Counted from the first letter of the stretch, positions 4,976-39,947 are shown. The stretch: DNA of 64,000 nt from Candidatus Zixiibacteriota bacterium (GCA_003599535.1 QZKQ01000033.1:48837-112836), one strand, 5' to 3'. A program made the numbers and translations. Notes: a model not told the origin generated them from the letters alone.

Positions 4976-5680
4976 ATGCCACTGGTAGAACTGCGCGACG
5001 TTTATAAGACCTTCCAGAACGGGGTCGCTCCGGTGCCCGCGGTGCAGGGCGTCAGCCTGGCGCTGGAGCGGGGCGAATTCGCCGCTCTGGCCGGACCTTC
5101 GGGATCGGGCAAGACCACCGTGTTGAACCTGATCGGCGGCCTGGACCGGCCCACCGAAGGGCGGCTGTTTTTCGACGGCCGGGACATTTCCGAGCTCCCC
5201 GAGACGGAACGCACTCAACTGCGCCGCCGGCGCATCGGCTTCATTTTCCAGACCTTCAGCCTGATCCCGGTGCTGTCGTCGGTGGAAAACGTGGAGTTGT
5301 CCCTGGCCCTGCTGGGGTTCACCACCACCGACATGCGCCGGATGTCCCTGGAAATCCTCGAACATGTCGGATTGAAGGGGCTGGAAAACCGCCGCCCGGC
5401 GCAGCTTTCCGGCGGCCAGCAGCAGCGGGTGGCCATCGCTAGGGCGCTGGTCAAGGACCCCGAGATCGTTCTGGCCGACGAGCCCACCGCCAACTTGGAT
5501 CATGACACCGGCGCGGAGATCCTGGACTTGATGGCTGATCTGAACCGCACCCAGGGCACCACCTTCCTGTTCTCCACCCACGATCCCAAGGTCATGGAGC
5601 GCGCCCGCCGGTTGATTCTCCTGGACGACGGGCGCGTAGTGTCCGACCGGACGGTTCCTTCCCGCGGCGAAGGCACATGA
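4976..5680 (+). CDS. ABC transporter ATP-binding protein (LolD/MacB-type)
   Basis: Walker A GPSGSGKTT, signature LSGGQQQRVAIARAL, Walker B IVLADEPTANLD. Confidence 0.9.
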   Translation: MPLVELRDVYKTFQNGVAPVPAVQGVSLALERGEFAALAGPSGSGKTTVLNLIGGLDRPTEGRLFFDGRDISELPETERTQLRRRRIGFIFQTFSLIPVLSSVENVELSLALLGFTTTDMRRMSLEILEHVGLKGLENRRPAQLSGGQQQRVAIARALVKDPEIVLADEPTANLDHDTGAEILDLMADLNRTQGTTFLFSTHDPKVMERARRLILLDDGRVVSDRTVPSRGEGT

Positions 5681-17523: not shown

Positions 17524-18581
17524 TCCTGAGAAAACCGACCCGCCGTGTAGAGATCCGGGGGCTGGGGCTGGGCGGCTTCGAGCCGGTCCGGCTGCAGTCC
17601 ATGACCTGCACGGCGACCACAGATATCCCCGCCACCCTGGACCAGATCCGCCGCCTCGAAGCAGCCGGCTGCGAACTGGTGCGCCTGGCCATTCCCGACC
17701 ATGAGGCGGCCGCCGCCTTCGCTCAAATTCGCCGCCAGACCGACCTGCCCCTGGTGGCCGACATCCACTTCGATTACCGCCTGGCCCTGGAAGCGCTCCG
17801 GGCCGGCGCCGACAAGATCCGCCTGAATCCGGGCAACATCGGCGGGGAAGAGCGCGCCCTGACCGTGGCCCGCGAAGCCGCCGCCCGGGGCGTACCGATC
17901 CGCATCGGGGTCAATTCCGGGTCGGTGGAGAAGGACCTGCTGGCCAAGTACGGCGAACCGACTCCGCAGGCCCTGGTGGAATCGGCTCTGCGCCACGTGG
18001 ACCTGCTGTCCGCCGTGCCGGACCTCCAGCTTGTGCTCTCTCTGAAAGCCTCCGACGTGCTCACCACCATCGAAGCCTACCGCGCCGTTTCCGCGCAGAC
18101 CGACCTCCCCCTGCACCTGGGCGTAACCGAAGCCGGCACCCCCTTCACCGGGGCCATCCGCTCGGCGGTGGGCATCGGCACCCTGCTGGCGGAAGGCCTC
18201 GGCGACACCCTGCGCGTGTCCCTGACCGGCGACGTGGTCGAAGAGATCAAAGTGGGGTGGGAAATCCTGCGCTCGCTGGGGCTGCGCCGCCGCGGCGTGG
18301 AGCTGATCAGTTGCCCCACCTGCGGCCGCACCGAAGTGGACCTGGTGGGCATCGCCGTGCGGGTGGAAAAGGCGCTGGAGGACATCCAGCAGCCGCTGCG
18401 GGTGGCGGTGATGGGCTGCGCCGTTAACGGCCCGGGGGAAGCCCGCGGCGCCGACGTGGGGGTGGCCTGCGGCAAGGGCAAGGGGTTGATCTTCGTGCGG
18501 GGGGAGACCGTCCGAGCCGTCCCTGAAGAGCGCATCGTGGAAGAGCTGGTGGCGGAGGTGAGGAAATTTCTGGAGGGGTAA
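17520..18581 (+). CDS. ispG: 4-hydroxy-3-methylbut-2-en-1-yl diphosphate synthase
   Basis: Full-length GcpE/IspG (..RLQSMT..IRLNPGNIG..CPTCGR..VMGCAVNGPGE..). GTG start. Confidence 0.95.
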   Translation: MILRKPTRRVEIRGLGLGGFEPVRLQSMTCTATTDIPATLDQIRRLEAAGCELVRLAIPDHEAAAAFAQIRRQTDLPLVADIHFDYRLALEALRAGADKIRLNPGNIGGEERALTVAREAAARGVPIRIGVNSGSVEKDLLAKYGEPTPQALVESALRHVDLLSAVPDLQLVLSLKASDVLTTIEAYRAVSAQTDLPLHLGVTEAGTPFTGAIRSAVGIGTLLAEGLGDTLRVSLTGDVVEEIKVGWEILRSLGLRRRGVELISCPTCGRTEVDLVGIAVRVEKALEDIQQPLRVAVMGCAVNGPGEARGADVGVACGKGKGLIFVRGETVRAVPEERIVEELVAEVRKFLEG

Positions 18582-19154
18582 ATATTCACCACAGAGACAC
18601 GGAGAATAGAATCCAGAAGCCAGAATACAGGAGTCAGGAGCCAGAAGCTAGGAGAATCCGAGGGTGGAATGGGTGTTCCTGCCTGACGGAGGGCCGATGC
18701 CTCAGTGGCGCAAGCGTCCCCGCTTGCGGTTATCTGCGGCCAGCCACGAAGTGGTCACTGCGTGACAGAAACGCCGGCCTTACTGATCTAATCTTTGAGG
18801 GCATTGCATTGGGATGGCCATCTGCCGGCGGACGGATTGTGGCCACATGAATCCCCGCGTAGGGGCGGGGCTTAGCTTACCCCTTCGGGGACCCCGTCCG
18901 CGACTCCCCAGGAGTCGAATAATAGTAACATCGGGCGCCAGCCCGGGGTGGAGGCGACCTCGTCAATCCTCCCGACTCTGCCACGCAGTCCTGGGCGAGA
19001 CTCGTCCCGCGCCATAACACCAATACGACCACAATCCTCGGTTGACGAAAAGCCATCCATATACGATGAGCTCAACCCGATTCCCCACCGGGCTGTAACC
19101 TTTGTGAGAATGACAAACAGAGCCAGCAGCCAACAGCCAGCAGCCAGGAGCCAT
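18582..19154 (+). repeat. modular hairpin-rich intergenic mosaic, copy B
   Basis: Starts 1 nt after the ispG stop with ATTCACCACAGAGACACGG plus the heptamer tract 18589-18658. Also carries the GGCCATC..GATTGTGGCC module, the CGCAAGCG-TCCC-CGCTTGCG hairpin (18709-18728, also at 41494-41513), GTAGGGGCGGGGC words, and ends in the (AGCCARC)n tract 19121-19152. Confidence 0.75.
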
Positions 19155-19580
19155 ATGCAAGCACTTCAACACTCCGACGGCTACCTGATCCGTCTGGAAC
19201 GCGGCGAAGAGGTCACCGCCACGCTGACCGCTTTCCTGGAAGAGAAGGGCATCCACGCCGGGACCGTCATGGGCCTGGGCGGCATCGGCGACGCCGAACT
19301 GGGCTTCTACGACCTGCCCAACAAGACCTACCTGCGCCGCCAGGTCCCCGGCAACCTGGAACTGGTGCACTACTCCGGCAACATCACCCTGGTGGACGGC
19401 AAACCCTTCATCCACGCCCACGCAGTGGTATCCGGGGCGGACTACCAGGCGCTCTCCGGGCACTTCTTCAGCGCCAACGTCGTCATCACCGGCGAATTCA
19501 TCCTGCGACCTGCGCAGTGGGAAGTATCCCGCACGCTGGACGAATTCACCGGCCTGAAACTGATGGATCTCCCGAAGTGA
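19155..19580 (+). CDS. PPC (DUF296) domain protein, putative DNA-binding
   Basis: ..LELVHYSGNITLVDGKPFIHAHAVVSGADYQALSGHFFSANVVITGEFIL.. fits the PPC/DUF296 pattern. Start ATG 19155; ATG 19110 would translate the heptamer tract. Confidence 0.65.
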   Translation: MQALQHSDGYLIRLERGEEVTATLTAFLEEKGIHAGTVMGLGGIGDAELGFYDLPNKTYLRRQVPGNLELVHYSGNITLVDGKPFIHAHAVVSGADYQALSGHFFSANVVITGEFILRPAQWEVSRTLDEFTGLKLMDLPK

Positions 19581-20293
19581 ACTTCCCCACCTCCCGCCAG
19601 ACCGGCCGGGGCGACTTCTACGTGGACCCCCGCCCCCTGGCCGACCCGCCCGCCCGGGTGACCATTTCCGTGGCCGGCAACATCGGGTCGGGCAAGACCA
19701 CGCTGACCCAGCGCATCGGCGAGCTGCTGACCTTCAAGGCCTTCCTGGAACCGGTGGCCGCCAATCCTTACCTGGAAGATTTTTATCTCGAACCGCGCCG
19801 CTGGAGCTTTCCCCTGCAGGTGGTCTTCCTGTCGCAGAAGCTGAAGCTGATGCAGGAACTGCAGGCCAGCCCCCACCACCGCGTGCTGGACCGCACCCTG
19901 CAGGAGGACGCCGAGATCTTCGCCGCCACCCAGTTTCAGGCCGGGTACATGGACGAGCGCGACTGGCAAGCGTACTGGGATCTCTACCAGGCCGTGGAAC
20001 CGTCCATCCTGCTGCCTGATTTGGTGCTCTACCTGCAGGCGGACGTGGATTTCCTGCTTTACCGCATCCGCCGGCGCGAACGTGCGGCGGAAAAACCCCT
20101 CGCCCAGGACTACCTGGAACGGCTGAACCAGGCCTACGACCGCTGGATCGAATCCATAGCCGGTCGCACCCGGGTGCTGAAAATCCGGGCGCTGGATTAC
20201 GAGAGCGGCCCCGACTGGAAGCGGCTGGACTTCCTGGTGCGGGATATCGAACGGATGCTGGCGCGGACGATCCCGTTCCATTTCGGAAAGTAA
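19577..20293 (+). CDS. deoxynucleoside kinase
   Basis: P-loop VAGNIGSGKTTL followed by ..FLEPVAANPYLEDFY..WSFPLQVVFL.. typical of dNK/dCK/dGK. GTG 19577 overlaps the upstream stop (GTGA). GTG 19622 is an alternative. Confidence 0.82.
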   Translation: MNFPTSRQTGRGDFYVDPRPLADPPARVTISVAGNIGSGKTTLTQRIGELLTFKAFLEPVAANPYLEDFYLEPRRWSFPLQVVFLSQKLKLMQELQASPHHRVLDRTLQEDAEIFAATQFQAGYMDERDWQAYWDLYQAVEPSILLPDLVLYLQADVDFLLYRIRRRERAAEKPLAQDYLERLNQAYDRWIESIAGRTRVLKIRALDYESGPDWKRLDFLVRDIERMLARTIPFHFGK

Positions 20294-20730
20294 AATTCAC
20301 CGCAAAGACGCAGAGAACGCAGAGAAAATAGGATCCAGAAGCCGGCAGTCAGAAGAATAGGAGTCAGGAGTCAGGAGTCCGGAGATTCGGACGGCCATCC
20401 GTCAGCCGACGGATCGTGGCCCACACCCCGCAGGGGTGGTCCTTTAGTAGCCGTAGGTTTCAACCTACGGAGAAGGGGAATCCCATACCTCCTTTTCTAC
20501 AACCCTGAAGGGGTTGACCATAATCCGTTCAATCCGTTCCATCTGTTTCATCTGCGATTCTGACGTGGGGCCGCCAGGAATCGCTTCGCTTTCCCTAAGG
20601 GACCACTGCGTGGCAATCCTGGCGGTAACGAGGAATATTTCTCTGTAAGCCGTAGAGCACCCGCTTCAGCGGGTAGCATGATAGTAGCCCAGGAATTCAT
20701 TCCTGGGTGGGTTGCCAACCGCCACCTCCC
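20294..20730 (+). repeat. modular hairpin-rich intergenic mosaic, copy C (most complete)
   Basis: Module order: heptamer tract 20294-20385; GGCCATCCGTCAGCCGACGGATCGTGGCC; CACCCCGCAGGGGTG; CCGTAGGTTTCAACCTACGG; CCCTGAAGGGG; AATCCGT repeats ending ATCTGCGATTCTGAC (20550-20564); GCCGCCAGGA..TCCTGGCGG stem (20570-20625); ACCCGC-TTCA-GCGGGT; CCCAGGAAT-TC-ATTCCTGGG (20688-20707). Confidence 0.85.
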
Positions 20731-21912
20731 ATGACCGCTTCCACCCGCAAAACTCTGAATATCGCCCTGCTGGTCGTTCTGGCCGGATTCCTGGTGCACT
20801 ACAGCCTCTTCTCCATGCGGGAATACGCCGACTTCAAGCCGCTGTACCGGTCCGGGGAGCGGTTCCTCTGGGGGCGGGACCTGTACAACTTCGCCGACGG
20901 CCATTTTCTGTTCAAGTATGCCCCCTTCGCCGGAGCCATGTTCGCGCCGCTGGCGGCGCTGCCCTGGGCGTTGGCGTCGGTCATCTGGGTGACCGGCGCG
21001 TGGGCGCTGCTGGGAGTTACCTACGTGCAATCCCGCCGCTGGATCATGGGCCGCGAAACGCTGCCGCTGTGGGTGGGGCTGCTGGTGTTCCTGGGAGTGT
21101 CCAAGTTCACCTTGGCGGAAGTGCGGCTGGGGCAGGTGAACTATCCCCTGCTGTTCTTCGCGCTGGCGGCCATCATCAGCCTGGGGAAATCCTGGGAAGG
21201 CTGGGGGGGCGCCCTGCTGGCGGTGGCGACGCTTTTCAAGCCTCCCCTGGCGCTGCTGCTGGTAGTGGCCCTGTGGCGCCGCCGTCCCAAGTTCGTCCTG
21301 GGCTTTGCCGTGGGGTTGACGGCCGGACTTTTGCTTCCGATCCTGCGTTATGGCTGGATTGGTACTCTGGACCTGTACCGGGGCTGGTGGGAGGTGATGT
21401 GGGTGTCCTCGCCGGGGCAGATGGAAAGCGAAGTCAACCAGTCGCTGCCCGGAGCCCTGACGCGCTGGCTGGTGCATAACCCCTATGGATCGTCCTTTGC
21501 CACCCTGCCGCCGGAGGCGCCCATGATCATCACCGGGATCATTTTCGCGCTCTACCTGGCGCTGGCCTGGTGGATGGAACTGCGCTCGCGCACCAACCCG
21601 GAATTGGCCCCCGTGGCGCCGGTGCTGCTGCTGACCGGCACGGTGCTGTTCAATCCCCTGGGCTGGGTGCAGAACTACATCTTTCTGGCGCCGGCCCTGA
21701 TCCTGGCTTTTCGCTACGTCTTGCTGGAACGGGGGCGCGGCCGGACGCGGGTGGCGCTGGTGGCGCTGTTCTTCCTGGCGGCGGTGCTGCCCAACTACGA
21801 GATGATGGGCCGGCACCTGCACAATCACTACCTGGCGCAGTCATGGATTTTCCTGGGGGTGGCGGCGCTGATGGCCGCGCTCGTGGTTCCTTTACGTTAT
21901 CGCCATGCATGA
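20731..21912 (+). CDS. GT87/DUF2029-like polyprenol-dependent glycosyltransferase (membrane)
   Basis: About 11 TM segments. The N-terminal region ..DFKPLYRSGERFLWGRDLYNFADGHFLFKYAPFAGAMFAPL.. resembles DUF2029 mannosyltransferase-like proteins. Start ATG 20731. Confidence 0.65.
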   Translation: MTASTRKTLNIALLVVLAGFLVHYSLFSMREYADFKPLYRSGERFLWGRDLYNFADGHFLFKYAPFAGAMFAPLAALPWALASVIWVTGAWALLGVTYVQSRRWIMGRETLPLWVGLLVFLGVSKFTLAEVRLGQVNYPLLFFALAAIISLGKSWEGWGGALLAVATLFKPPLALLLVVALWRRRPKFVLGFAVGLTAGLLLPILRYGWIGTLDLYRGWWEVMWVSSPGQMESEVNQSLPGALTRWLVHNPYGSSFATLPPEAPMIITGIIFALYLALAWWMELRSRTNPELAPVAPVLLLTGTVLFNPLGWVQNYIFLAPALILAFRYVLLERGRGRTRVALVALFFLAAVLPNYEMMGRHLHNHYLAQSWIFLGVAALMAALVVPLRYRHA

Positions 21913-22207
21913 TGGCGCGGGGGTTAAATTCGTCAGCGCCGAGCTGGACATGCTGGAAACCGAGCCCGGCGGCCGGCCGGTACGCTTCCGCTATGAAGGC
22001 GCCGAGCACCGTGTGGAGGAGATTGTGCGGGAATGGCAGGACTACGGCTTTTCGGCGGCGGCCTTCCGGCGCGATTGGCGCACCCGGCGGCATCGCAACT
22101 ACTACGAAATCCGCACCGACCGGGGTCTGCATGGGCAGGTGTACTTTGACCGGGGAGTCAAACCCAGCAGCCCGCGGGCGTGGGTGCTGCTGGAAGTGTA
22201 TGAATAG
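21905..22207 (+). CDS. hypothetical protein (100 aa)
   Basis: ORF overlapping the GT87-like gene by 8 nt. Host-like composition. No motif recognised. Confidence 0.4.
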   Translation: MHDGAGVKFVSAELDMLETEPGGRPVRFRYEGAEHRVEEIVREWQDYGFSAAAFRRDWRTRRHRNYYEIRTDRGLHGQVYFDRGVKPSSPRAWVLLEVYE

Positions 22208-22256
22208 GGCTCTCGGCTGTCGGCTCTCGGCTCTCGGCTCTCGGCTATTAGCTCCT
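22208..22256 (+). repeat. (GGCTCTC)n heptamer tract, left inverted arm of the four-helix-bundle cassette
   Basis: ggctctc ggctgtc ggctctc ggctctc ggctctc ggctatt agctcct. Reverse-complementary to 22701-22731. Confidence 0.85.
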
Positions 22257-22305
22257 GGATACTGATAATTAATGCAGACATCAAATAATATCTTCGGAGG
22301 ATACA

Positions 22306-22695
22306 ATGGGCGATTATCGAAAGCTCGAAGTATGGCAATTGAGCCATGCTCTGGTGTTGGATATTTATAAAGTCACCTCTTCATATCCCAATCATGAAAT
22401 GTTTGGCTTGACCAGTCAAACTCGACGCGCCGCCATCTCGATTGCTGCGAATATTGTCGAAGGATGCGGCCGGGGGCGTGATGGCGAAATGTCCAGGTTT
22501 CTGATTATTTCTCTGGGGTCAGCCACCGAATTGGAATATCATCTCCTGGTGGCAAAGGATGTAGGTTATCTTCCCAACACGGAATATGATCGCCTGTCTG
22601 AATGCTTGAGCCGCATACTGCGCATGTTGAACACGTTTACGCAACGCGTAAGGAATAGCTTTGAAGCATCTAACAAAAAGATTGCAGCACGGTAA
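22306..22695 (+). CDS. four-helix-bundle protein (23S rRNA intervening-sequence protein family)
   Basis: MGDYRKLEVWQLSHALVLDIYKVTSSYPNHEMFGLTSQTRRAAISIAANIVEG.. matches the family signature. GC about 42% on a sampled line, against about 65% in flanking genes. Confidence 0.9.
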   Translation: MGDYRKLEVWQLSHALVLDIYKVTSSYPNHEMFGLTSQTRRAAISIAANIVEGCGRGRDGEMSRFLIISLGSATELEYHLLVAKDVGYLPNTEYDRLSECLSRILRMLNTFTQRVRNSFEASNKKIAAR

Positions 22696-22700
22696 CCGAT

Positions 22701-22731
22701 AGCTGAGAGCCGACAGCCGAGAGCCGAGAGC
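22701..22731 (+). repeat. (AGCCGAG)n heptamer tract, right inverted arm of the four-helix-bundle cassette
   Basis: agctgag agccgac agccgag agccgag agc. Pairs with 22208-22256 with about 3 mismatches in 28 nt. Confidence 0.85.
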
Positions 22732-22735
22732 GTTC

Positions 22736-22764
22736 TTGACTTCCGTCAAGAAAATCCGTACATT
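22736..22764 (+). promoter_or_regulatory. sigma70-like promoter (TTGACT-17-TACATT)
   Basis: -35 at 22736-22741, -10 at 22759-22764, 45 nt before ATG 22810. Confidence 0.45.
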
Positions 22765-22809
22765 ATATGCCTCCCGCGTGTTGACCCGCGTCATCAACCG
22801 GAGCCTCCC

Positions 22810-23295
22810 ATGAAGCGATATGAAGCCCCGCGCAAGGAATTGATCGAAGGCGTGGCGGTCAAGGATCTGAAGATCATCCCTGACGAGCGCGGCCGGCTGA
22901 TGGAAATCCTGCGCTCGGACGACCCCCTGTTCGTCAAGTTCGGCCAGGTGTACATGACCACCAACTACCCCGGCGTAGTCAAGGCCTGGCACTACCACAA
23001 GCAGCAGGTGGACCACGTGGCCTGCGTCAAGGGGATGATCAAGCTGGTCATGTTCGACGACCGCGAAGGCAGCCCCACCCGGGGGATCCTCAACGAATTC
23101 TTCCTGGGCGAGCATAACCCCAAGCTGGTGCGCATCCCTTCGGGGGTGTGGCACGGCTGGAAGGGGGTCAGCGAGACCGAGGCGCTGATCGTCAACACCA
23201 CCACCGAGCTGTACGACCCGGCCAATCCGGACGAATACCGGCTCCCCTTCGACACGGACAAGATCCCTTACGACTGGGCGATACGGATGGGGTGA
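22810..23295 (+). CDS. RmlC-like cupin (dTDP-4-dehydrorhamnose 3,5-epimerase-related sugar epimerase)
   Basis: ..IIPDERGRLMEILRSDD..GQVYMTTNYPGVVKAWHYHKQQVDHVACVKG.. is the small epimerase-like cupin pattern. Confidence 0.75.
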   Translation: MKRYEAPRKELIEGVAVKDLKIIPDERGRLMEILRSDDPLFVKFGQVYMTTNYPGVVKAWHYHKQQVDHVACVKGMIKLVMFDDREGSPTRGILNEFFLGEHNPKLVRIPSGVWHGWKGVSETEALIVNTTTELYDPANPDEYRLPFDTDKIPYDWAIRMG

Positions 23296-23424
23296 CCCCG
23301 GAATAAATTCCGGGGCTCTCCCGTAAAACCAAGTCACTGAAGTGACTGGCGATGTTTCGAAATCACGGCAGTCTCTTTAGAGACTTTCAATCCTAAAAGA
23401 GAGCACCCGAATTCATTCGGGTGC
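23296..23424 (+). repeat. about 130-nt four-hairpin composite element (copy J) upstream of gcvPB
   Basis: CCCCGGAAT-AA-ATTCCGGGG (23296-23315), AGTCAC-TGAA-GTGACT, AGTCTCT-TT-AGAGACT (23370-23385), GCACCCGAAT-TC-ATTCGGGTGC (23403-23424). Collinear with 37389-37520. Confidence 0.85.
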
Positions 23425-23514
23425 CAAGACCGGCGATCATCAACACTTGAAACCATCTCTGACCAGTTTCCGTTTAATATCAACCCGCATTTCCCCATAA
23501 ACCTTCGATGACCC

Positions 23515-24969
23515 ATGTACGACAAACTCATCTTCGATCTGTCCAAACCCGGCAAGACCGGCGTCTCTCTGCCCCAGACAGACGTTCCGCACCGCGATAA
23601 TCTGATCCCGGACCAATTGCGCCGCAAGGAACCCATTGGGCTGCCCGAAGTCAGCGAACCGGAAGTGATGCGCCATTTCCACAACCTCTCGATCAAGAAC
23701 CACCACATTGACAAGGGCTTCTACCCCTTGGGATCGTGTACCATGAAGTACAATCCCAAGATCAACGAAGTCACCGCGCGGCTGTCCGGCCTGGCCGACC
23801 TGCACCCCTTGCAGCCGGCCGAACAGGTCCAGGGGGCGCTGCGGCTGCTGGTGGAACTGGGCGAGGCGCTGCTGGAAGTATCCGGCATGGACGGCGTCAC
23901 CCTGCAGCCCGCCGCCGGGGCTCACGGCGAACTGACCGGCCTGCTCCTGATGCGCGCCTACCATGAATCCCAGGGGCACCCGCGCCGCAAGGTCATCATC
24001 CCCGACAGCGCCCACGGCACCAACCCGGCCTCCATCATCACCGCCGGCTACGAGGTGGTGCAGATCCCTTCCAATGCCGACGGGCTAATTGACGTCCAGG
24101 CTCTGAAGAACGTGCTGGACACCGAAGTCGCCGCCATGATGATCACCAACCCCAACACCTTGGGAATGTTTGAATCCAACATCCTGGAGGTGGCGGAACT
24201 GGTCCACAACGCCGGCGGGCTGCTGTACATGGACGGCGCCAACCTGAACGCCATGCTGGGCATCACCCGCCCGGGCGACATGAACTTCGACGTGGTGCAC
24301 ATCAACCTGCACAAGACCTTCTCGACGCCACACGGCGGCGGCGGCCCCGGAGCCGGCCCCGTGGCGGTCAAGCAGCACCTGGTCCCCTTCCTGCCCGGCC
24401 CCCTGCCGGTCAAGGATGGCGATAAGTACCACTGGCAGGAACCCGGGCCGCAGTCCATCGGCCGGGTGGGGAGCTTCTACGGCAACTTCGGCGTGCTGGT
24501 GCGGGCCTACACCTACATCCTGATGATGGGCGCCGAAGGCCTGCGCCAGGTCAGCGAACGCGCGGTCATCAACGCCAATTATCTGCGCGCCCTGCTGGAA
24601 CCGCACTACGAGCTGCCCTACAAGCGCCGCAGCCTGCACGAAGTGGTGTTCTCCGGCGACGGCCTGAAGCCCTACGGCGTCAAGACCACCGACGTGGCCA
24701 AGCGCCTGCTGGACTACGGCTATCACGCGCCCACCATTTACTTCCCGCTGATCGTTCATGAGGCGCTGATGATTGAGCCGACCGAGACGGAATCCAAGGA
24801 GACCCTGGACGCCTTCGCGCAGGCCATGATCAACATCGCGGAAGAGGCTCGGACCAACCCCGAGCTGCTGCACCGCGCGCCGATTGCGACTCCGGTGGGC
24901 CGCCTGGACGAGGCCGGCGCCGCTCGCGCTCTGAACGTCGTCTACAAGCCGGAAGCCGAGCAGAAATAG
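23515..24969 (+). CDS. gcvPB: glycine dehydrogenase (aminomethyl-transferring) subunit 2
   Basis: Full-length GcvPB with the PLP-lysine region [18 protein letters not shown]. No gcvPA/T/H adjacent. Confidence 0.95.
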
Positions 24970-25009
24970 CTTCTCCAGCCTGACATTGGATTACTTGGCA
25001 GCACCATCA

Positions 25010-25041
25010 CGGCGGGGGAAGCGATTCCCCCGCCGGCGTTT
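25010..25041 (+). terminator. possible rho-independent terminator after gcvPB
   Basis: CGGCGGGGGAA-gcga-TTCCCCCGCCG (11-bp stem) followed by GCGTTTGG. The T-tract is weak. Confidence 0.4.
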
Positions 25042-25442
25042 GGGGCCGGGATGGCAGAACCGGAAGTACTGCACATAAGTATAAGAGTAGTCAGGAGCCG
25101 GGAGTCAGGAGCCAGAAGTCTCGGAGGCATAGCACCCCTGGAGAACGTAACCTGTCCTCTCCTCTTTTCCCGAACGACATCCGCGAAATCTGTCAGATCT
25201 GAGCCAATCTGCGATTCAGAAAAGAGTAAAATTTCCGTGGAATCCGTGTGATCCGCTCGATCCGTGATTCTGACCATTTCCTGACCGTGAGATTGCTTCG
25301 GCCCGCCCTTTGGTGGTCTATTCTGACGGATGATGACAACCTCCAGGTCACAGACTCGTTCAGGCTTTATCTCCGGCGGGCCTCGCAATGACACTGCGAT
25401 TCGGGCGGAGTCAAGCCCCCCTACGCGAGCAGTCACCAGCGA

Positions 25443-25529
25443 GTAGGTTGGGTTAGCGAAGCGTAACCCAACAATTTGTTAAAGTGACCGCGGTGTTGGG
25501 TTACGCCCTGGCGGGCTAACCCAACCTAC
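25443..25529. repeat. 87-nt two-tier perfect hairpin
   Basis: Outer stem GTAGGTTGGGTTAGC/GCTAACCCAACCTAC (15 bp). Inner stem GTAACCCAACA/TGTTGGGTTAC (11 bp). 5/10-nt internal loop containing GCGAAGC. 20-nt apical loop. Confidence 0.9.
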
Positions 25530-25569
25530 CCAGCCAACAGCCAACAGCCAATAGCCAGCAGCCAATCCC

Positions 25570-28509
25570 ATGCCTCGCCGTTTCACCACACCGACCCTGC
25601 CTCTTGACCTGCTCCAGGACCTGTGCCTGGACCGCTGCGTCGCCTTGGGGCTCACCGCCACCGGGCCGGACCTGGAGTCCGACCGCGTGGTGGAAGTGGC
25701 CGCGATGCGCCTGGTGGAAGGCCGGGAGACGGAGTCTTACCACACGCTGCTGCGCCTTTCCGGCCGGAGGCCTCCCGACTGGGAGCAGACCACGGGACTA
25801 AGCGAGAAGGACCTGGCCGGCGCCCCTCGCCCGGCCGAGGCGCTGAAGGGGTTGCTCGAATTTATCGGCGAAGACCCGCTGGTGGGGCACGACCTGGTCC
25901 GCACCCTGGGCTTCCTGAAGGAGGCATTGCGCCGCGAGGGGCTGGACGACTTCGCTCTGGACCGCAAGGCCGCCGACACCGACCTGCTGGCCCGCGTGTT
26001 TCTTCCGACCCTGCCGTCGAGATCGCTGCCCGCCCTGGCGGATTACTTCAACCTGGGCGGGGAGGACTGCCTCCGGGCGCTGTCCCAGGCTCGCGCCTGC
26101 GCTCATATCCTGCTGCACGAACTATCCTACTTCATTCGCGTAGACCTGAAGGCCGTCGACCTGCTGCGCCGCGCCGCCGAAGGGCTGCGCCATCCCTCCG
26201 CCTGGATCTTCGGAGCCTGGCACGGCTACCTGATGCGTTCCGCCGCGCTGGAAGGCCGCTTCAAGCCCTACCAGATCCCCTTCCTGAAGGACAACGTCAT
26301 CGGCCGGCTGGCCTATCGCTTCGGCAAGGAGTTGGAGGAGGCGGATCCCGAAGCTCTGCCGGAGGCGATGAACGGAGCCCTGGTGGAGCAGTTTTTCTCC
26401 GGGCAGGGACGGCTGTCGCAGGCTCTGCCCGGGTTCGAATGCCGCCCCCAACAGGAGGAGATGGCTCAAGCCTGCGGCGAGATCTTCAACGCGGGCGGCG
26501 TCCTGGCGGTGGAAGCCGGCACCGGGGTGGGCAAATCGCTGGCCTACCTGGTGCCCTCCATCCTGTGGGCCGCGGCCAACCGCCACCGCGCCGAACGCGT
26601 GATCGTGTCCACCAATACCATCAACCTTCAGGAACAGCTTTTCCACAAGGACCTGCCTCTCCTGGTGGAGGCCTTACCGGAAGCCTTTTCCGCCGTATTA
26701 CTGAAAGGGCGGGGCAACTACCTGTGCCGCGGCCGCTGGGAGACGCTGGTCACCGAACACCCCCTGCGCCTGGGGCAGCCGGAACGCCTGGCCCTGCTTT
26801 CCCTGGCGCTGTGGGCCGGGCAAACTCGCACTGGGGACGTCACCGAGGTGGCCGCCTTCGACGGGGAGGGGTCCGACGCCCTGTGGGCGCGGCTGGCGTC
26901 CGAGCCGGGAAGTTGCCGGGGCAAGCGCTGCCAGGAACGGGGGCGCTGCTTCTACGCCAAGGCCCGCGCCGCCGCCCAGCGCACCGACGTTGTGGTGGTC
27001 AACCATGCCCTGCTGCTGTCCGACCTGGCCGCTGACCGGGCTCCCATCGGTCCCTACCGCGCCCTGGTGGTGGACGAAGCCCACCACCTGGAACGCGCCG
27101 CCGCCCAGCACCTGGGCCGGGAATTGAACTACTGGCAGTTCCGCGTCTGGACCGGGCGCATGTACGAGGTGGAAGGCCTGGCCACCGGTCTGCTGGCGCG
27201 GATCATGGTCAAGGCTTCGACCGCCGCCGACAGCCATCCCGCTCTGCCGGGAATCCTGAACGCCTTGCAGGAGGCGGGCGCCCGGGTGGTGGAACTGCGC
27301 CGCGTCGCCCTGGATTTCTTCCAGAACCTGACCGCCGCTGTGCGCGGCCATCTGGGCGACCGGGACAACGGCTACACCCCCAAGCTGCGCCTGCGTGACC
27401 CGGCCGGCTTCCTGCAGGTCGGCCCCCTGGCGCAGGTGCCGCTGCTCACGGTCATGATGGAGCTGGAAAAGCTCTTCGCCAGGCTGACCGCGGGGCTGGG
27501 GGAGATTCCCCTGGCAATCCTGCCCAAGGTGGAGGACTGGCGCGAGGAACTGGGCGCCGCCCTGGACGAGCTGCGATCCCTGCGCGAGACGTTCGTCTTC
27601 TACTTCATGCCGCCCGACGGCGATTGGGTCTACTGGACGGAACTGCCCCGCCGCCGCGATCAGTCCGCGCTGCTCTATGCCGCGCCGCTGAACGTGGCCG
27701 ACATCCTGCGCGACCAGCTCTTCGCGCCCCTGCGCACCGCCGTGCTGACCTCCGCGACGCTGACCGTGGCGGATCGCTTCCACTACTACCTGCGCAAGGT
27801 AGGGCTGGCCGGCCGCGACGACGTCCGCAGCCACAAGCTGGGCAGTCCCTTCGATTTTTCCCGGCAGATGCGCCTGGGCCTGCCCGCGTTCCTGCCATCA
27901 CCCCGGCAGCCGGAATTCGAGGAGCGTTTCATCGAAATGCTGCGGGACCTGGTCAAGCGCATCCCCCGGGGAACGCTGGGGCTGTTCACTTCGCACCGGG
28001 CGCTGAAGACGGCAGGCAAGGCGCTGGACCGGGAGATCCCCGCCCGCAGCCTGCTGGTGCAGGGCGCCGGCGGCAACCGCGACCAGCTCCTGCGCCGCTT
28101 CCGCGACGAACCGGGATCGGTGCTGTTGGGCACCGACAGCTTCTGGGAAGGCATTGACGTGGTGGGTGAAGCCCTGGAACTGCTGCTGGTCTCCAAGCTG
28201 CCCTTCGAAGTGCCGTCCGAACCGCTGGTGGAAGCCCGCCTGGAACGCCTGGAAGCCGAGGGGCGCGATCCCTTCATGTACTACACTGTGCCGGAGGCCA
28301 TCATTCGGTTGCGGCAGGGGGTGGGCCGGCTAATCCGCTCCAAGAGCGACCGCGGCGCCGCCATCATCTGCGATTCGCGCCTGACGCAGTCCCGCTACGG
28401 CCGGGCCTTCCTGGAATCCCTGCCCGCGCCGGTGACGGTGTACGAAACCTATGAAGCCATGATCCGGGACCTGGAGGCGTTCTTCGCGCCGGTGACTGTC
28501 CCGGATTAG
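25570..28509 (+). CDS. dinG: DnaQ-like 3'-5' exonuclease fused to DinG/Rad3-family ATP-dependent helicase
   Basis: N-terminal exonuclease-like domain (..ATGPDLESDRVVEVAAMRL..), helicase motif I AGTGVGKS, DEAH box VVDEAHHLE, and C-terminal helicase motifs (..GTDSFWEGIDV.., ..GRLIRS..). 979 aa. Confidence 0.85.
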   Translation: MPRRFTTPTLPLDLLQDLCLDRCVALGLTATGPDLESDRVVEVAAMRLVEGRETESYHTLLRLSGRRPPDWEQTTGLSEKDLAGAPRPAEALKGLLEFIGEDPLVGHDLVRTLGFLKEALRREGLDDFALDRKAADTDLLARVFLPTLPSRSLPALADYFNLGGEDCLRALSQARACAHILLHELSYFIRVDLKAVDLLRRAAEGLRHPSAWIFGAWHGYLMRSAALEGRFKPYQIPFLKDNVIGRLAYRFGKELEEADPEALPEAMNGALVEQFFSGQGRLSQALPGFECRPQQEEMAQACGEIFNAGGVLAVEAGTGVGKSLAYLVPSILWAAANRHRAERVIVSTNTINLQEQLFHKDLPLLVEALPEAFSAVLLKGRGNYLCRGRWETLVTEHPLRLGQPERLALLSLALWAGQTRTGDVTEVAAFDGEGSDALWARLASEPGSCRGKRCQERGRCFYAKARAAAQRTDVVVVNHALLLSDLAADRAPIGPYRALVVDEAHHLERAAAQHLGRELNYWQFRVWTGRMYEVEGLATGLLARIMVKASTAADSHPALPGILNALQEAGARVVELRRVALDFFQNLTAAVRGHLGDRDNGYTPKLRLRDPAGFLQVGPLAQVPLLTVMMELEKLFARLTAGLGEIPLAILPKVEDWREELGAALDELRSLRETFVFYFMPPDGDWVYWTELPRRRDQSALLYAAPLNVADILRDQLFAPLRTAVLTSATLTVADRFHYYLRKVGLAGRDDVRSHKLGSPFDFSRQMRLGLPAFLPSPRQPEFEERFIEMLRDLVKRIPRGTLGLFTSHRALKTAGKALDREIPARSLLVQGAGGNRDQLLRRFRDEPGSVLLGTDSFWEGIDVVGEALELLLVSKLPFEVPSEPLVEARLERLEAEGRDPFMYYTVPEAIIRLRQGVGRLIRSKSDRGAAIICDSRLTQSRYGRAFLESLPAPVTVYETYEAMIRDLEAFFAPVTVPD

Positions 28510-33661: not shown

Positions 33662-36172
33662 ATGGGACATGCCTACCGCTTCTTGTTTGCCGGCTTGATG
33701 CTCGCCCTGTCCGCCCTGCCCGCCCGGGCTGTGGTGGACCTGAATTCCGCCCCTCTTGACCAGATCCAATCGTTACCTTTAAGCCCGGAGCAGGCCCGGG
33801 CGATCTGGGAGCGGGTGTACTACCAGGGGCCCCTGGGGAGTCTCTACGATCTCTTCGATCTGCCCGGCTTCGACACCCCCACGGTGGAAGCCCTGCGTCC
33901 CCTGGTGCGGGTGGAACCCCCGGTTTCCGGCGACCTGCGCGCCGCACGCCGGGAACGGCTCTCCCGGCGCCTCAGCGACCTGGGCACCGATGAAGGCTCC
34001 GGGGCCGCCTGGTCGGACGCCTGGTTCGACCGGCTGGTGGATCCCCTGAACGTCAACCGGGCCTCCGCCGAAGAGATGGCGGGACTGGAAAACCTCTCCC
34101 CGGTGGACGCGGTGGCCATCTACAACCAGGTCAGGTCTCAGGGCGAGCTGAAGAGCGTGCGCGAGCTGCGCACCGTCCCGGGGCTGTCCCGCTTCGGCTA
34201 CTATTCCGCCCGGGATTACCTGGTGTTCGAGGACGCGGCGGAGATCCGCGCCCTGCACGGGTCCTACCAGTTCCGCGCCTACAATATCCCCTACTTCCAG
34301 GATGAAGAAGACGTCATCCCCGCTGAAGCCCTGCGAAGTCCCGAACCGGATCTGACCCACAAGCTGCGCCTGAACTACGGCCGGCAGTGGCGCTTCGGCC
34401 TGTCCTATCACCGCAATTTCGGCGAACCGGATGCCTACTTCAATCCCGGCGCCGGATTCCAGATCCCCGAAGTAAAAGCCTACCTGGGGCTGGAAGATCG
34501 TCCTCTCGGTCCCGTGAAACTGGAGCGCGCTTACCTGGGCAATTTCCACGTGTCCGTGGGGCAGGGGTTGATCGTGGAGACGGGCGATTACTTCACGCCG
34601 CGCTATTCCGGCTACGATTTCGCCCAGCGGCCGTACGGCGTGATTGGGGACTTGTCGCGCACCCGGGAATACGGCTTCCGCGGTGTGGCGGCGCAGGCTG
34701 CGTGGAAGAAGCTCTCGGTCCTGGGCTTCGTGTCCCTGGACGAGAAGGACGCCGTGGTCAATCCCGACGGCTCCTTCAGCTATCTGGTCTCCCTGACGCC
34801 CCGGCAGGACTTCGACCTCTACCCCGCCGCCCTGGCCGATCCGGAAGACAGCAGCAGTTGGGTGGACCCCTATCCCGGTACGCAGAGCCCGCTGGAGGCG
34901 GTCAAGGAATTCGCCGCCGGCACCAACCTGCAGTACCGTTTCGCCCCGGGGTCGCACGTGGGCGTGACCTACTTCGAGACCCTGTACGATCGGGAGCTGC
35001 ACCCCGACATCTACGCCCTGGTGGATTCGGCCGAATACGACGAGATCAACGACGACTACGCCAACGCGGAAATCCTGAACTCCTACTCGTCCCTGGCGCG
35101 GTCGTCCATCTGGGGTCCGGCGCAGTCGCTGCGGCGCATCTACGGCCTGGAAGGACGCTGGGTGGTCAATAACCTGGCCTTCCAGGGGGAAGTGGCTGAA
35201 CTGGAGGTGGACGGGTCGCCCTTCAAGTTCGGCGACGACCCCAAGGCCATGGTCTTTTCTGCCTTCGCCCAGTGGAACAGCGTGAATCTGCTGGCTCTCT
35301 ACCGCCACTACGACGTGGCCTACGACAACCCCTACAATCGCGGCTTCGCCAACTACTCCCGCTACAAGGGCACCATTTTCGAAGATTACTACTACCTGAA
35401 CGATCCGACGTTGGGATCGCTCTACACCAACGCCGCCGCGCCCCAGGCCGAGGACGGAGTGTTCCTGAAATCGCGGGTGCAGTGGAGCCGCCAGGTGACT
35501 TCACAGGTGGAACTGGACAACTGGACCCGCCTGGCCGACGGGCAGGACTACCACCGCTGGGTGGTGAAACTCTACTACCGGCCGGTCTACCCGGTACAGT
35601 TCAACCTGCGGCAGAAGTTCCAGGCCCGCGCGGCGCTGAATCCGTTCGACAAGCAGTACTACGACAGCCGGGAAAGCCGCCTGACCCTGCGCCTGCTGCT
35701 GTCCCGCCGCGACCGGGTGGAACTGTTCTACGCCGCGGGGTACACCCAGTGGCCGCCCCGCCCGCGCTTCAGCGGCGACCCTGCGCCCACCGGGAATTAC
35801 ACCTCCATCGGCAACAACGCCGTGCACAACGAGGCGCTGGGAATCACCCTGGAACACCACTTCAGCAACCGCTTGCAGGCTTCCGCCTTCTGGGGGATGT
35901 ACCAGGGCTTCCTGTGGACCTTCGAGGACACCGATTTCATCATCCTGGACGGGGAAGCGACCCGCGCCTGGTTCGCCCTGGCCTCGCGGCTTTCCGACCA
36001 GATTTCCGTGCGCCTGAAGTACGCCTTCGAAGACGGCCTGCCGGTGACCAACGTCCAGGCCCGCGATAACAACGAGTGGCCTGTCCAGCAGCCGGTCGGC
36101 CAGCCCACCTCCGCCTGGAACGTGACCGACCACACTGATTCCTTCCGGGTGCAGGTGGATTGGTATTTTTAA
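33662..36172 (+). CDS. helix-hairpin-helix (ComEA-like) motif protein fused to a large predicted outer-membrane beta-barrel
   Basis: Signal peptide MGHAYRFLFAGLMLALSALPARA. HhH-like motifs VDLNSAPLDQIQSLPLSPEQARAI and VNRASAEEMAGLENLSPVDAVAIYNQV. About 600 aa of amphipathic beta-strand pattern ending ..FRVQVDWYF (terminal aromatic OMP signal). Confidence 0.62.
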   Translation: MGHAYRFLFAGLMLALSALPARAVVDLNSAPLDQIQSLPLSPEQARAIWERVYYQGPLGSLYDLFDLPGFDTPTVEALRPLVRVEPPVSGDLRAARRERLSRRLSDLGTDEGSGAAWSDAWFDRLVDPLNVNRASAEEMAGLENLSPVDAVAIYNQVRSQGELKSVRELRTVPGLSRFGYYSARDYLVFEDAAEIRALHGSYQFRAYNIPYFQDEEDVIPAEALRSPEPDLTHKLRLNYGRQWRFGLSYHRNFGEPDAYFNPGAGFQIPEVKAYLGLEDRPLGPVKLERAYLGNFHVSVGQGLIVETGDYFTPRYSGYDFAQRPYGVIGDLSRTREYGFRGVAAQAAWKKLSVLGFVSLDEKDAVVNPDGSFSYLVSLTPRQDFDLYPAALADPEDSSSWVDPYPGTQSPLEAVKEFAAGTNLQYRFAPGSHVGVTYFETLYDRELHPDIYALVDSAEYDEINDDYANAEILNSYSSLARSSIWGPAQSLRRIYGLEGRWVVNNLAFQGEVAELEVDGSPFKFGDDPKAMVFSAFAQWNSVNLLALYRHYDVAYDNPYNRGFANYSRYKGTIFEDYYYLNDPTLGSLYTNAAAPQAEDGVFLKSRVQWSRQVTSQVELDNWTRLADGQDYHRWVVKLYYRPVYPVQFNLRQKFQARAALNPFDKQYYDSRESRLTLRLLLSRRDRVELFYAAGYTQWPPRPRFSGDPAPTGNYTSIGNNAVHNEALGITLEHHFSNRLQASAFWGMYQGFLWTFEDTDFIILDGEATRAWFALASRLSDQISVRLKYAFEDGLPVTNVQARDNNEWPVQQPVGQPTSAWNVTDHTDSFRVQVDWYF

Positions 36173-36598
36173 GCAAGAATCCAGAAGCCAGAATACAGGA
36201 GCCAGGAGGTCCGGAGGGTGGGATAGGCATTCTTGCCTGTCGGAGGGCAATCCGTCTCCTGACGGATCGTGGCCAACACCCCGAAGGGGTGATCTTTTTG
36301 TAGCCGTAGGTTTCAACCTACGGAGAGGATCAGCCTCCTCCCCTTCTCGACCCCGTAGGGGTCGAACCATGTAATCCGCGTAACCTGCTAAATCGTTGAA
36401 AATCTGCGATTCTGACGGGGAGAGGAAGCGACCCCCGCCGCCAGGAATCGCCACTTAAGGGCGGGCTTAAGTCCCACTTCGCTCCAATCCTGGCGGCAAC
36501 GTGAAGCACCCGGCACACTCTGGATCCCATGGTTCGCTGGGAGGACATCGCCGAGAACCGAGAGCCGAGAGCCAACAGCCAAGCGCCAACAGCCATAC
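36173..36598 (+). repeat. modular hairpin-rich intergenic mosaic, copy D
   Basis: Same module order as copy C: heptamers AATCCAGAAGCCAGAATACAGGAGCCAGGAG, GATCGTGGCC module, CACCCCGAAGGGGTG, CCGTAGGTTTCAACCTACGG, GACCCCGTAGGGGTC, ATCTGCGATTCTGAC (36402-36416), GCCGCCAGGA/TCCTGGCGGC (36437-36497), (AGCCRAS)n 36556-36594. Confidence 0.85.
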
Positions 36599-38852: not shown

Positions 38853-39623
38853 ATGAATACCCAACAGAGCATCGCCTACACCCTGGGCGCCACCCCGGAA
38901 GTCATGCCCTACCTGGGGCGGCTCCTGGCGGACCTGCAGGCGCTGGGATCGTCTCCCAGCCTGATCGTGGATCTGCTCCGCCCCCTGGGCCTGCCCCCGG
39001 ACAGCCGCGTCCTGGACCTGGGGTGCGGCAAGGGCGCTGTGGCCCTGGAAATCGCCCAGAGGCTGGGCTTTCAGGTAGAGGGAGTGGACGGCTTCAGGCC
39101 GTTCATTCAGGCGGCGCGGCGGCGGGCCAAGCGGTTGAGGCTGTCCGGTCTCTGCCGGTTTGAATGCGCCGACCTGCGGGACGTGTTCCGCCGGCCGGAA
39201 ACATACGACGTGATCGTCCTGGCCGCCATCGGGCCGGTGCTGGGGGACATGGCGCAGACCGTGGGGACGCTGCGGCAGAGAGTGCGTCCCGGCGGGTACC
39301 TGGTGCTGGATGACGGCTTCCTGGATCCGGGCGAAGGCACCGTACCGGACAGCTACACGGCCTATCTTCCCTACCGGGAAACGGTAGCACAGATGACTTC
39401 CTTCGGCGACCGGGTGATCCACGAACGGATCTTTTCGCCGGACGAGATCCGCGCCACCAACGCCGCGATATACGCGAAAATCCGCCGCCGCGCCGCGAGC
39501 ATCATCCGCCGCCACCCGGCAGCGGCAGAGGCCATCCAGGAATACCTCCGCGGCCAGGAAGATGAGAACCTGGCCCTGGAAACCCGGGTGCGGTCGGCGC
39601 TGTGGGTGGTGAAAATAAAGTAA
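38853..39623 (+). CDS. class I SAM-dependent methyltransferase
   Basis: Motif I VLDLGCGKGAVALEIA, motif post-I ..GVD.., motif II ..YDVIVLAA... Confidence 0.8.
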   Translation: MNTQQSIAYTLGATPEVMPYLGRLLADLQALGSSPSLIVDLLRPLGLPPDSRVLDLGCGKGAVALEIAQRLGFQVEGVDGFRPFIQAARRRAKRLRLSGLCRFECADLRDVFRRPETYDVIVLAAIGPVLGDMAQTVGTLRQRVRPGGYLVLDDGFLDPGEGTVPDSYTAYLPYRETVAQMTSFGDRVIHERIFSPDEIRATNAAIYAKIRRRAASIIRRHPAAAEAIQEYLRGQEDENLALETRVRSALWVVKIK

Positions 39624-39935: not shown

Positions 39936-39947
39936 ATGGAGCCTCCC

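Follow-up and report, generated by a model that had tools for sequence, protein, structure and literature searches.

The intervening sequences (IVSs) of bacterial 23S rRNA that carry an S23p open reading frame (ORF) are already known, as is the widespread occurrence outside rRNA of genes for the same protein family, PF05635. The origin and mobility of the IVSs have nevertheless been an open question since about 1990, and the 'four helix bundle protein' (4HB protein) itself, a very large family whose function is open, has no name, or only a generic one, in almost every genome. In a 64-kb stretch of DNA from a Candidatus Zixiibacteriota bacterium (the whole of which is called the window here), one such gene lies between two ordinary protein-coding genes and is enclosed by two arrays of a heptamer in inverted orientation. 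The locus thus raises the question of what an IVS-like arrangement represents when it is found outside rRNA. The reading favoured here, with a probability of about 0.7, is that the segment 22208-22731 is an insertion cassette of about 0.52 kb, of the IVS type and mobile in nature.

A 4HB gene enclosed in a stem of inverted heptamer arrays

The features of the locus are collected in Table 1; the matches to PF05635 and TIGR02436, together with the arrays reported by TRF, agree with the position at which the initial annotation had placed a 4HB gene between inverted heptamer arrays. The left array (22208-22246; period 7, 5.6 copies, 93% matches, score 71, unit GGCTCTC) has its first base directly after the TAG stop codon of the DUF6504 gene (22205-22207), and the right array (22696-22731; 5.1 copies, 82% matches, unit reported as CCGAGAG) ends 4 nt before a TTGACT-17-TACATT site, so that the cassette does stand, as had been described, right after a stop codon and right before a promoter-like site. 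The right arm begins at the stop codon of the 4HB gene itself.

Table 1. Coordinates of the cassette, of its neighbouring host features and of the other period-7 tracts of the window
Feature	Position	Strand	Evidence
Upstream host gene, DUF6504, 100 aa	21905..22207	+	PF20114, E 1.9e-8
Left arm, (GGCTCTC)n, 5.6 clean copies ending at 22246, degenerate units beyond	22208..22256	+	TRF, inverted-repeat pairs, RNA fold
AT-rich spacer with weak sigma-70-like site and Shine-Dalgarno	22257..22305	+	
Four-helix-bundle gene (PF05635 / TIGR02436, '23S rRNA IVS protein' family), 129 aa	22306..22695	+	Profile matches
Right arm, (GAGAGCC / GACAGCC)n, reverse complement of left arm	22693..22731	+	TRF, inverted-repeat pairs, RNA fold
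Host promoter of the cupin gene, TTGACT-17-TACATT; outside the cassette, marks the right edge of the insertion	22736..22764	+	
Downstream host gene, RmlC-like cupin, 161 aa	22810..23295	+	PF00908, E 6e-17
Other period-7 tracts	18608-18654 with 19121-19163; 20359-20384; 25089-25120 with 25531-25565		
Further period-7 tracts	36171-36205 with 36550-36595; 40960-41046; 4912-4935; 39838-39856		

The two arms are complementary over 33 nt at 91% (22216-22248 with 22699-22731), over 39 nt at 87% (22209-22247 with 22693-22731) or over 30 nt at 93% (22208-22237 with 22696-22725), depending on the pair considered, so that the pairing first estimated at about 28 nt with about 3 mismatches is real and somewhat better than thought. 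The ungapped inverted-repeat score of the cassette was 26.5, compared to a mean of 8.3 and a maximum of 14 in 500 shuffles and to a maximum of 13.5 at 300 random positions of the window. When the region 22200-22740 was folded as RNA (minimum free energy, MFE, of -192 kcal/mol, z -4.95), the arrays formed a terminal stem of about 40 bp, which was present in both the MFE fold and the centroid. Two features that define IVSs are therefore found here, an enclosing stem of at least 20 bp made by terminal inverted repeats and arms of tandem heptamers with an ORF of the S23p family in the loop; another, insertion in a helix of 23S rRNA (9, 25 or 45), is not, as the cassette sits between the DUF6504 and cupin genes. 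Rfam gave no family match at the cassette and no rRNA in 18000-26000, and PADLOC gave no match at the cassette.

The G+C content was 0.472 for the gene and 0.489 for the cassette, compared to 0.640 for 5 kb on each side, a composition that looks foreign; the low GC that had been noted is thus real, although the 42% then set against about 65% fits only the lowest 200-nt window (0.44). Inside the loop, a weak sigma-70-like site (CTGATA-16-AATAAT, 22262-22289) is followed by a Shine-Dalgarno sequence, GGAGG, at 22296-22300, five bases 5' of the ATG of the 4HB gene.

The encoded protein matched PF05635 with an E value of 4e-36 (123.9 bits, cut-off 33.8; residues 5-109 on a model of 106 positions) and TIGR02436 with 118.2 bits (cut-off 24). 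The motif RxxxSxxxNxxE(G), as quoted for four-helix-bundle proteins in PMC3936711, is present as RxxxSxxxNxxEG in the stretch RRAAISIAANIVEG. Next to its own database entry, a singleton, the closest relative in the databases was 61% identical, and similarity, in sequence only, was detected to a solved pentamer, XCC0516 (PDB 2gsc; E 1.3e-17). The gene is the sole copy of its family in the 64-kb window.

The neighbours are housekeeping genes, namely those of IspG/GcpE, a deoxynucleoside kinase (dNK), a GT87 glycosyltransferase, DUF6504, the RmlC-like cupin, glycine dehydrogenase subunit 2 (GcvP) and a DinG-like helicase-exonuclease. No transposase or integrase was found in the 5 kb to the left or in the 5 kb to the right of the cassette, and neither a reverse transcriptase nor a template/variable repeat pair was found among its neighbours.

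About 10 to 18 period-7 arrays are present in the window (0.16 per kb by the array detector), and those other than the cassette arms mostly bracket non-coding mosaic intergenic repeats instead of genes. The arms had been proposed to be related to these mosaic tracts, and a common AGCC/GGCT core, together with the GAGAGCC unit carried at 36550-36573, supports the relationship; however, the mosaic tracts have their two ends in direct orientation, which precludes pairing, and they are thus related tracts and not equivalent stems. No remnant 4HB pseudogenes were found inside the mosaic repeats of the window.

The cassette is absent from the same site in relatives

The closest relatives available for the host locus carry cupin orthologues 75-79% identical to that of the window, a scan of metagenomes having given none closer than 79%. 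Their gene order is DUF296 - (GT87 or dNK) - DUF6504 - cupin - gcvPB, and the adjacency of DUF6504 and cupin is kept in five loci (L081, L082, L163, L164 and L165), with a gap of 109-157 nt. In all five the site is empty, with neither a 4HB gene nor heptamers in the gap, and the DUF6504 orthologues stop at the same C-terminal position. In two of them (L081 and L082), a TTGACT-17-TAAATT site was detected at the place of the TTGACT-17-TACATT site of the window. The 524-bp segment therefore fits precisely into the interval from the stop codon of DUF6504 to a conserved promoter of the host, where it replaces a spacer of about 45 nt.

As the segment is absent from the five relatives and the cupin promoter is kept in L081 and L082, it reads as an insertion. 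Given the distance of these relatives, the preference for insertion over loss rests on parsimony and on GC, and an insertion in the lineage of the window appears as the parsimonious polarity. The empty sites and the low GC thus uphold the insertion cassette that had been proposed for this locus, but the label 'autonomous' given to it is unsupported because the cassette has no recognisable recombinase.

The gene-in-stem design recurs across the family

The family was sampled at 80 loci taken from genome representatives, whose proteins are 36-59% identical to that of the window and which belong to at least eight phyla (Gemmatimonadota, Chloroflexota, Thermodesulfobacteriota/'Deltaproteobacteria', Verrucomicrobiota, Acidobacteriota, Actinomycetota, Planctomycetota, Pseudomonadota and others). 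An upstream/downstream inverted repeat was detected in 52 of the 79 testable loci (score of at least 16; shuffle maxima 9-14), so the expectation that other 4HB genes would be flanked by inverted heptamer arrays, or by other long inverted repeats, was borne out. Counting the window with the 80 loci, a period-7 array was found within 250 nt upstream in 40 of 81, downstream in 23 and on both sides in 17. In the latter group, the downstream unit was the exact reverse complement of the upstream one in 13 loci and deviated by one or two mismatches in three, the remaining locus (L073) having both in direct orientation. The pairs of units differ between loci (GGCTATT/AATAGCC, AGCGGTC/GACCGCT, GGCTTGA/TCAAGCC, GGCTGTA/TACAGCC, GGCTCTC/GAGAGCC), and this covariation is the main evidence suggesting that complementarity itself is maintained. 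In six loci of this set, a repeat finder confirmed the arms, which were 31-53 nt long and 407-480 nt apart.

The arrays are concentrated beside the gene: 77 were found within 250 nt of it (1.97 per kb), compared to three in 183 kb farther out in the same loci (0.016 per kb) and to 0.025 per kb in 564 kb of unrelated control loci, an enrichment of about 100-fold. In sense orientation, the upstream unit has the consensus RGCTNTY, with GCT in 34 of 40; the rule used to choose the rotation favours GCT, although by chance no more than about 0.1 would be expected per heptamer. No rRNA was present in any of the 20 strongest loci. The GC of the gene was below that of its flanks in 79 of the 80 homologous loci, with a mean difference of -0.083.

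The type of unit follows the similarity of the proteins, in one clear case across phyla: a locus of Planctomycetota (L049) and one of Actinomycetota (L061) encode 62% identical proteins and both use GGCTTGA. Such tracking would fit gene and arms travelling together as well as a specificity of the protein for its repeat, two possibilities that it does not separate. The reverse association is much weaker, as only one of 120 loci with (GGCTCTC)3 contained a 4HB gene and most arrays were solitary. A gene is thus a good predictor of an array but an array a poor one of the gene, and the arrays are not confined to the cassette.

When the mismatches in the stems of the family were counted, G-U (66) did not exceed A-C (74), without a bias towards wobble pairs on the sense strand. 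Nothing therefore marks an RNA duplex, as opposed to complementarity at the DNA level, as the selected form, and this result is uninformative or mildly against selection at the RNA level. Internal sigma-70 promoters were detected in four of 41 spacers between left arm and ATG versus 1.1 expected, a weak signal that is not family-wide, and motifs resembling a Shine-Dalgarno in only 14 of 52 loci; the start codons used for both counts were taken from tblastn matches and may be imprecise.

IVSs of 23S rRNA are built on the same design

The IVS of Coxiella has a terminal stem of 28 bp, its S23p ORF is preceded by a tandem array of two to four GACAGAT heptamers, and RNase III cuts it at the start of the first heptamer repeat (Warrier et al. 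2016, PMC4990558). When genomes were searched for (GACAGAT)n, a 4HB gene was present in seven of 120 loci, in six of them directly beside the array. Two of these elements are true IVSs, located by Rfam inside LSU rRNA in Rhodospirillales (L363, 1511-1915, between 'GCACCGAAGCTGCGG' and 'GGTAGCGGAGCGTT') and in Burkholderiales (L410, 3925-4287). Both contain a 4HB ORF within inverted (GACAGAT)n arms, which in L363 are 92% complementary over 36 nt and lie 419 nt apart, and their proteins are 26-32% identical to that of the window. The likeness to 23S rRNA IVSs seen from the window alone is thus found again, with the same ORF-in-heptamer-stem anatomy, in IVSs that are really inside rRNA. Three further loci (L468, L409 and L377) have the GACAGAT unit and an IVS-like anatomy but lie outside rRNA. 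As unit and anatomy are the same inside and outside rRNA, IVSs in rRNA and free-standing cassettes share one design, which suggests that ORF-containing 23S rRNA IVSs are members of the cassette class that landed in rRNA.

Cassettes vary in presence and appear to be exchanged and to decay

In Actinomycetes, two loci with flanks 88% identical in DNA differ by the presence of a cassette. The empty site (L042) reads 'TAG attccgaca aaagctagtggag' and contains no heptamers, whereas the filled site (L061) reads 'TAA aatta' followed by an AGGCTTG arm, the 4HB gene, a CAAGCCT arm, 45 nt and 'aaagctagtggag'; no target-site duplication was found at these junctions. L042 has a cassette of its own, which flanks the same gene at its opposite end. 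In another pair (L003 and L006), with flanks 95-97% identical, each locus carries one cassette and the two occupy alternate adjacent stop-to-start slots, the other slot being taken by an ORF-less filler of about 110 nt ended by heptamer tracts, which are inverted at site B of L003. As DNA identity between the two cassettes is no more than about 70%, the contents of the slots were exchanged and not simply moved.

Forms without the ORF were also found. A single Gemmatimonadaceae contig carries a cassette with its ORF (L054) and another with a loop of 120 nt and no ORF (L275), and both have in common the left terminus AACGTCAAC...TGACGGCnGCC(GGCTCTC)n and the right terminus (GAGAGCC)nGGCAnCCGTCnGTTGnCGTT, their right-hand ends being 82% identical over about 110 nt; a terminal palindrome, AACGTCAAC...GTTGACGTT, lies outside the heptamers in both. 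In another genome, a hairpin that has (GGCTCTC)n arms but no ORF is present in multiple copies (L252, L262, L306, L316), among which the loop is conserved.

Other cassettes are orthologous and have been inherited stably, with their neighbouring genes unchanged (L005/L007, L015/L018/L026, L022/L023, L048/L050/L055, L035/L041 and L036/L053). In vertically inherited cassettes of Chloroflexota, only the upstream array persists, at -56 across species and without the downstream arm, indicating that this array has some role independent of the stem. Taken together, these comparisons of sequences suggest that the cassette, together with its arms, is gained and lost between genomes as a single unit and probably decays into ORF-less hairpins with heptamer arms.

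Proposed mechanism and alternative explanations

In the model proposed for the cassette of the window, read-through transcription from the GT87-DUF6504 genes would give an RNA in which the arms form a duplex of about 40 bp and the loop contains the entire ORF. Such a duplex would resemble those cleaved by RNase III in the IVSs of rRNA. A cut here would free the RNA of the cassette and separate it from the host message, leaving the host genes insulated, and an insertion between genes would for this reason be tolerated, like those in the helices of rRNA. The cupin gene downstream would keep its own promoter. The weak promoter-like site within the loop speaks against this model, since its use would give the 4HB gene an mRNA without the left arm. 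Cassettes would spread and be exchanged as a unit, and would degenerate to ORF-less hairpins. For the processing by RNase III of this particular cassette we would give about even odds.

Two alternatives deserve attention, and neither is exclusive of an insertion cassette. The arrays could be cis-regulatory sites of the 4HB gene and not signals for insertion or excision, either as operator or UTR repeats bound by the pentameric product or as 5' and 3' UTR segments whose pairing sets the stability of the mRNA. We hold this somewhat improbable, even if several of the above data speak for it: across phyla the core of the upstream unit is conserved and its orientation fixed, about four to five units make up the median array while the homologue of solved structure is pentameric, the Chloroflexota orthologues keep the upstream array alone and the type of unit tracks the protein even across phyla. 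It leaves unexplained, however, the ORF-less elements with the same arms, the presence/absence polymorphism and the identical design in rRNA, where the S23p of Coxiella is apparently untranslated (PMC4990558).

Alternatively, the arms could act as DNA, that is, as hairpin or terminal-inverted-repeat ends mobilised in trans by a single-strand transposase in the style of REPIN/RAYT or IS200/IS605, or as substrates of recombination in the exchange of cassettes, with pairing in the RNA being incidental. This is likewise a tentative reading, to which we attach a similar, rather low likelihood, but a serious rival. The lack of a G-U over A-C bias, the absence of target-site duplications at the resolved junctions, the hairpins without an ORF that a single genome carries in multiple copies with conserved loops and the terminal palindrome of L054 and L275 are in its favour, whereas the absence of a transposase or integrase near the cassette of the window is not, and the variation of the units between genomes is awkward for a single conserved enzyme. 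Moreover, the arms of the fillers in the alternative slots of L003 and L006 are unrelated, and exchange at these sites therefore resembles ordinary recombination within the genes that flank them.

That a resident gene came by coincidence to lie between two of many intergenic heptamer microsatellites might be thought of because the window is rich in period-7 arrays, but is effectively excluded by the mutual complementarity of the two arrays, which the mosaic tracts bracketing non-coding repeats lack, by their score relative to random positions of the window and by the recurrence of the arrangement, with its local enrichment, beside homologues in at least eight phyla. Equally untenable is a remnant of a diversity-generating retroelement (DGR) with the gene as its accessory protein Avd, as the matches of the protein to bAvd (17.8 bits, cut-off 40) and to NF033474 DivGenRetAVD (16.6 bits, cut-off 80) are far below the cut-offs and the housekeeping neighbours include neither a reverse transcriptase nor a TR/VR pair.

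An IVS-type insertion cassette thus remains the favoured reading for the segment. With respect to its protein, the most economical guess, which must be taken as tentative, is that it binds the heptamer arms or their RNA, because the core of the unit is conserved, its orientation is fixed, four to five units compare with a pentameric fold and the upstream array is kept in old copies.

Significance of the cassette class

In the literature consulted, whose coverage was incomplete so that a prior mention is possible, no description was found of heptamer or inverted flanks, or of an IVS stem, around PF05635 genes outside rRNA, nor any account of arms with conserved heptamer units or of filled/empty or ORF-positive/ORF-negative pairs. 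The class thus appears to be widespread and, outside rRNA, apparently undescribed. An ORF in a heptamer stem that lies between ordinary genes, is present or absent in near-identical genomes and decays puts the IVSs in a new light: rRNA appears as one of the places where a general cassette has landed. It would also explain why PF05635 genes are found inside unrelated operons such as cas loci, into whose operons they have been noted to be wedged (PMC3936711). It bears on annotation as well, because the arrays can mimic short repeat loci. The main interest is that the origin of the IVSs and the function of a large orphan protein family become testable, the material for this being the filled/empty site pairs, the conserved unit RGCTNTY and a candidate partnership of protein and repeat.

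A wider proposal, speculative and in our opinion unlikely as a whole, is that heptamer-armed cassettes form a hitherto unrecognised superfamily of mobile elements occupying rRNA helices, as IVSs, and stop-to-start slots between ordinary genes in many bacterial phyla. Their only encoded factor, the Avd-like 4HB protein, would bind the arms or their RNA and promote propagation or maintenance, possibly by way of an RNA intermediate with the help of reverse transcriptase recruited in trans, and ORF-less heptamer-armed repeats, including the mosaic family of the window, would be non-autonomous derivatives.

Comparison with known systems

Two known types of element do not correspond to the cassette. 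In an integron gene cassette the repeat halves would lie together, as a single attC palindrome 3' of the ORF in an array beside an integrase; here they flank the ORF, and no integrase was found among the neighbours; a CRISPR-like array is excluded because the units are of 7 nt without spacers between them. Cyanobacterial STRRs are intergenic tandem arrays of 7-nt units, abundant in certain genomes, and by this description they resemble the mosaic tracts of the window; to our knowledge, they have not been described as inverted pairs that enclose a gene.

MITEs and REPINs are marked by terminal inverted repeats, multiple copies, no coding capacity and a target-site duplication. The cassette has terminal inverted repeats and, in other genomes, a multi-copy state with ORF-less derivatives; it encodes a protein, is present as one copy in the 64-kb window and shows no target-site duplication at the resolved junctions. 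The likeness to REPIN/RAYT systems lies in a protein gene that has a short repeat in inverted orientation on its two sides, with further copies of this repeat scattered over intergenic regions of the genome. The protein, however, is a four-helix bundle of 129 aa without a known catalytic motif and not a Y1 transposase, and the reverse association is weak, the gene being found at 1-6% of arrays.

The ORF-less IVSs of the Salmonella type and the Correia elements of Neisseria, which are MITE-like palindromic repeats, are substrates of RNase III; the IVSs of Campylobacter are generally ORF-less also, and the example of this genus offered in the initial annotation is doubtful. Like the cassette, these are short inverted-repeat elements tolerated in transcribed DNA, and related ORF-less hairpins with heptamer arms do exist (L275, L252, L262, L306 and site B of L003). 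They differ from the cassette of the window in that the latter has a conserved and intact protein gene, no target-site duplication seen and arms of tandem heptamers instead of a unique terminal inverted repeat.

Avd (bAvd) belongs to a homologous four-helix-bundle fold family and is a pentamer that binds nucleic acid and reverse transcriptase; the gene of the window has no reverse transcriptase or TR/VR nearby, and the Avd-specific models remain below cut-off.

The system that the cassette resembles most is the ORF-containing 23S rRNA IVS, as found in Leptospira, Coxiella burnetii, L363 and L410. The location is different, between protein-coding genes in the window and in helix 45, 25 or 9 of 23S rRNA for the IVSs, and so is the unit, GGCTCTC (of the RGCTNTY class) versus GACAGAT. 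The cassette has its own Shine-Dalgarno and a 59-nt spacer, whereas the start codon of the IVSs is in or beside the arm, and excision by RNase III without religation, a property of rRNA IVSs, is only a prediction for the cassette. The distance from arm to arm is 380-420 nt in the IVSs compared to 445 nt in the cassette. Both encode a protein of the same family, with the ORF in the loop of a terminal inverted-repeat stem whose arms are tandem heptamers, and both are elements of about 0.45-0.55 kb.

The cupin-gcvPB spacer and the cupin promoter-like site

The spacer between the cupin gene and gcvPB measures 219 nt in the window, and other small inserts are found at this place in relatives (L081, L082 and L161). 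The L081 insert holds a candidate HicB/HicA-type toxin-antitoxin pair, judged by eye from the sequence, that of L082 several unannotated ORFs, and that of L161 two low-GC ORFs, also unannotated. The neighbourhood appears to be a hot spot of small selfish modules. The promoter-like site of the cupin gene, TTGACT-17-TA(A/C)ATT, was found in the window, L081 and L082, being kept across genomes with only about 75% protein identity and a GC content differing by 10-18 points.

Coordinates of repeats, spacer inserts and promoter-like sites
Feature	Locus	Positions	Details
60-nt tandem repeat	window	41204-41369	2.8 copies, 97% identity, GAGATTGCTTCGGCCGCTGAAAACCGCGGGCCTCGCAATGACACTGCCGGGCGATGGGCG; within one mosaic region
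Mosaic intergenic repeat family	window	18582-19156, 20294-20706, 24970-25569, 36173-36598, 40950-41608	
Mosaic intergenic repeat family	window	4560-4976, 39620-39950	reverse orientation
Cupin-gcvPB spacer insert	L081	2585-3184	
Cupin-gcvPB spacer insert	L082	4487-7900	
Cupin-gcvPB spacer insert	L161	2987-4283	
Cupin promoter-like site	window	22736-22764	
Cupin promoter-like site	L081	2005-2033	
Cupin promoter-like site	L082	3945-3973	

Mosaic intergenic repeats of the window

The mosaic repeats are built from common short modules, such as gtagccgtaggtttcaacctacgg, ccgcaggggtggtc, gcgcaagcgtccccgcttgcg and aatctgcgattctgac, and end in purine-rich heptamer tracts in direct orientation to each other, with the AGCCAGR type adjoining the upstream stop codon and a tract of the AGCCAAC/AGCCAGC/AGCCGAG type the downstream start codon. 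One related copy of the 60-nt repeat unit was present at 25290-25395. Directly upstream of the GT87 gene, a sub-threshold Rfam match to the Acido-Lenti-1 RNA was detected (20675-20707, minus strand; 26.3 bits at E = 0.0094, with the gathering score set at 37 bits).

Overlap of heptamer arms with coding sequences

In the actinomycete four-helix-bundle (4HB) cassette of L042, the TGA stop of the upstream host gene falls within the first AGGCTTGA unit of the left arm (1395-1440); where a tandem heptamer includes a stop triplet, three units are enough to place a stop in every reading frame. In the cassettes of L003 (1838-1875) and L006 (1845-1885), the 3' end of the 4HB reading frame (C-terminus ..KKLKADR*) overlaps with the right arm, which ends 4-19 nt before the ATG of the next gene; the ribosome-binding site of that gene is probably supplied by this purine-rich arm.

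In the true 23S rRNA intervening sequence of the Burkholderiales locus L410, the ATG of the ORF lies within the last heptamer of the left arm (3887-3925), and the outer heptamers of that arm (ATTCAGG AATCAGA ATTCAGA) are similar to the mosaic tract at 40960-40991 of the window (AGAATTCAGAAGCC).
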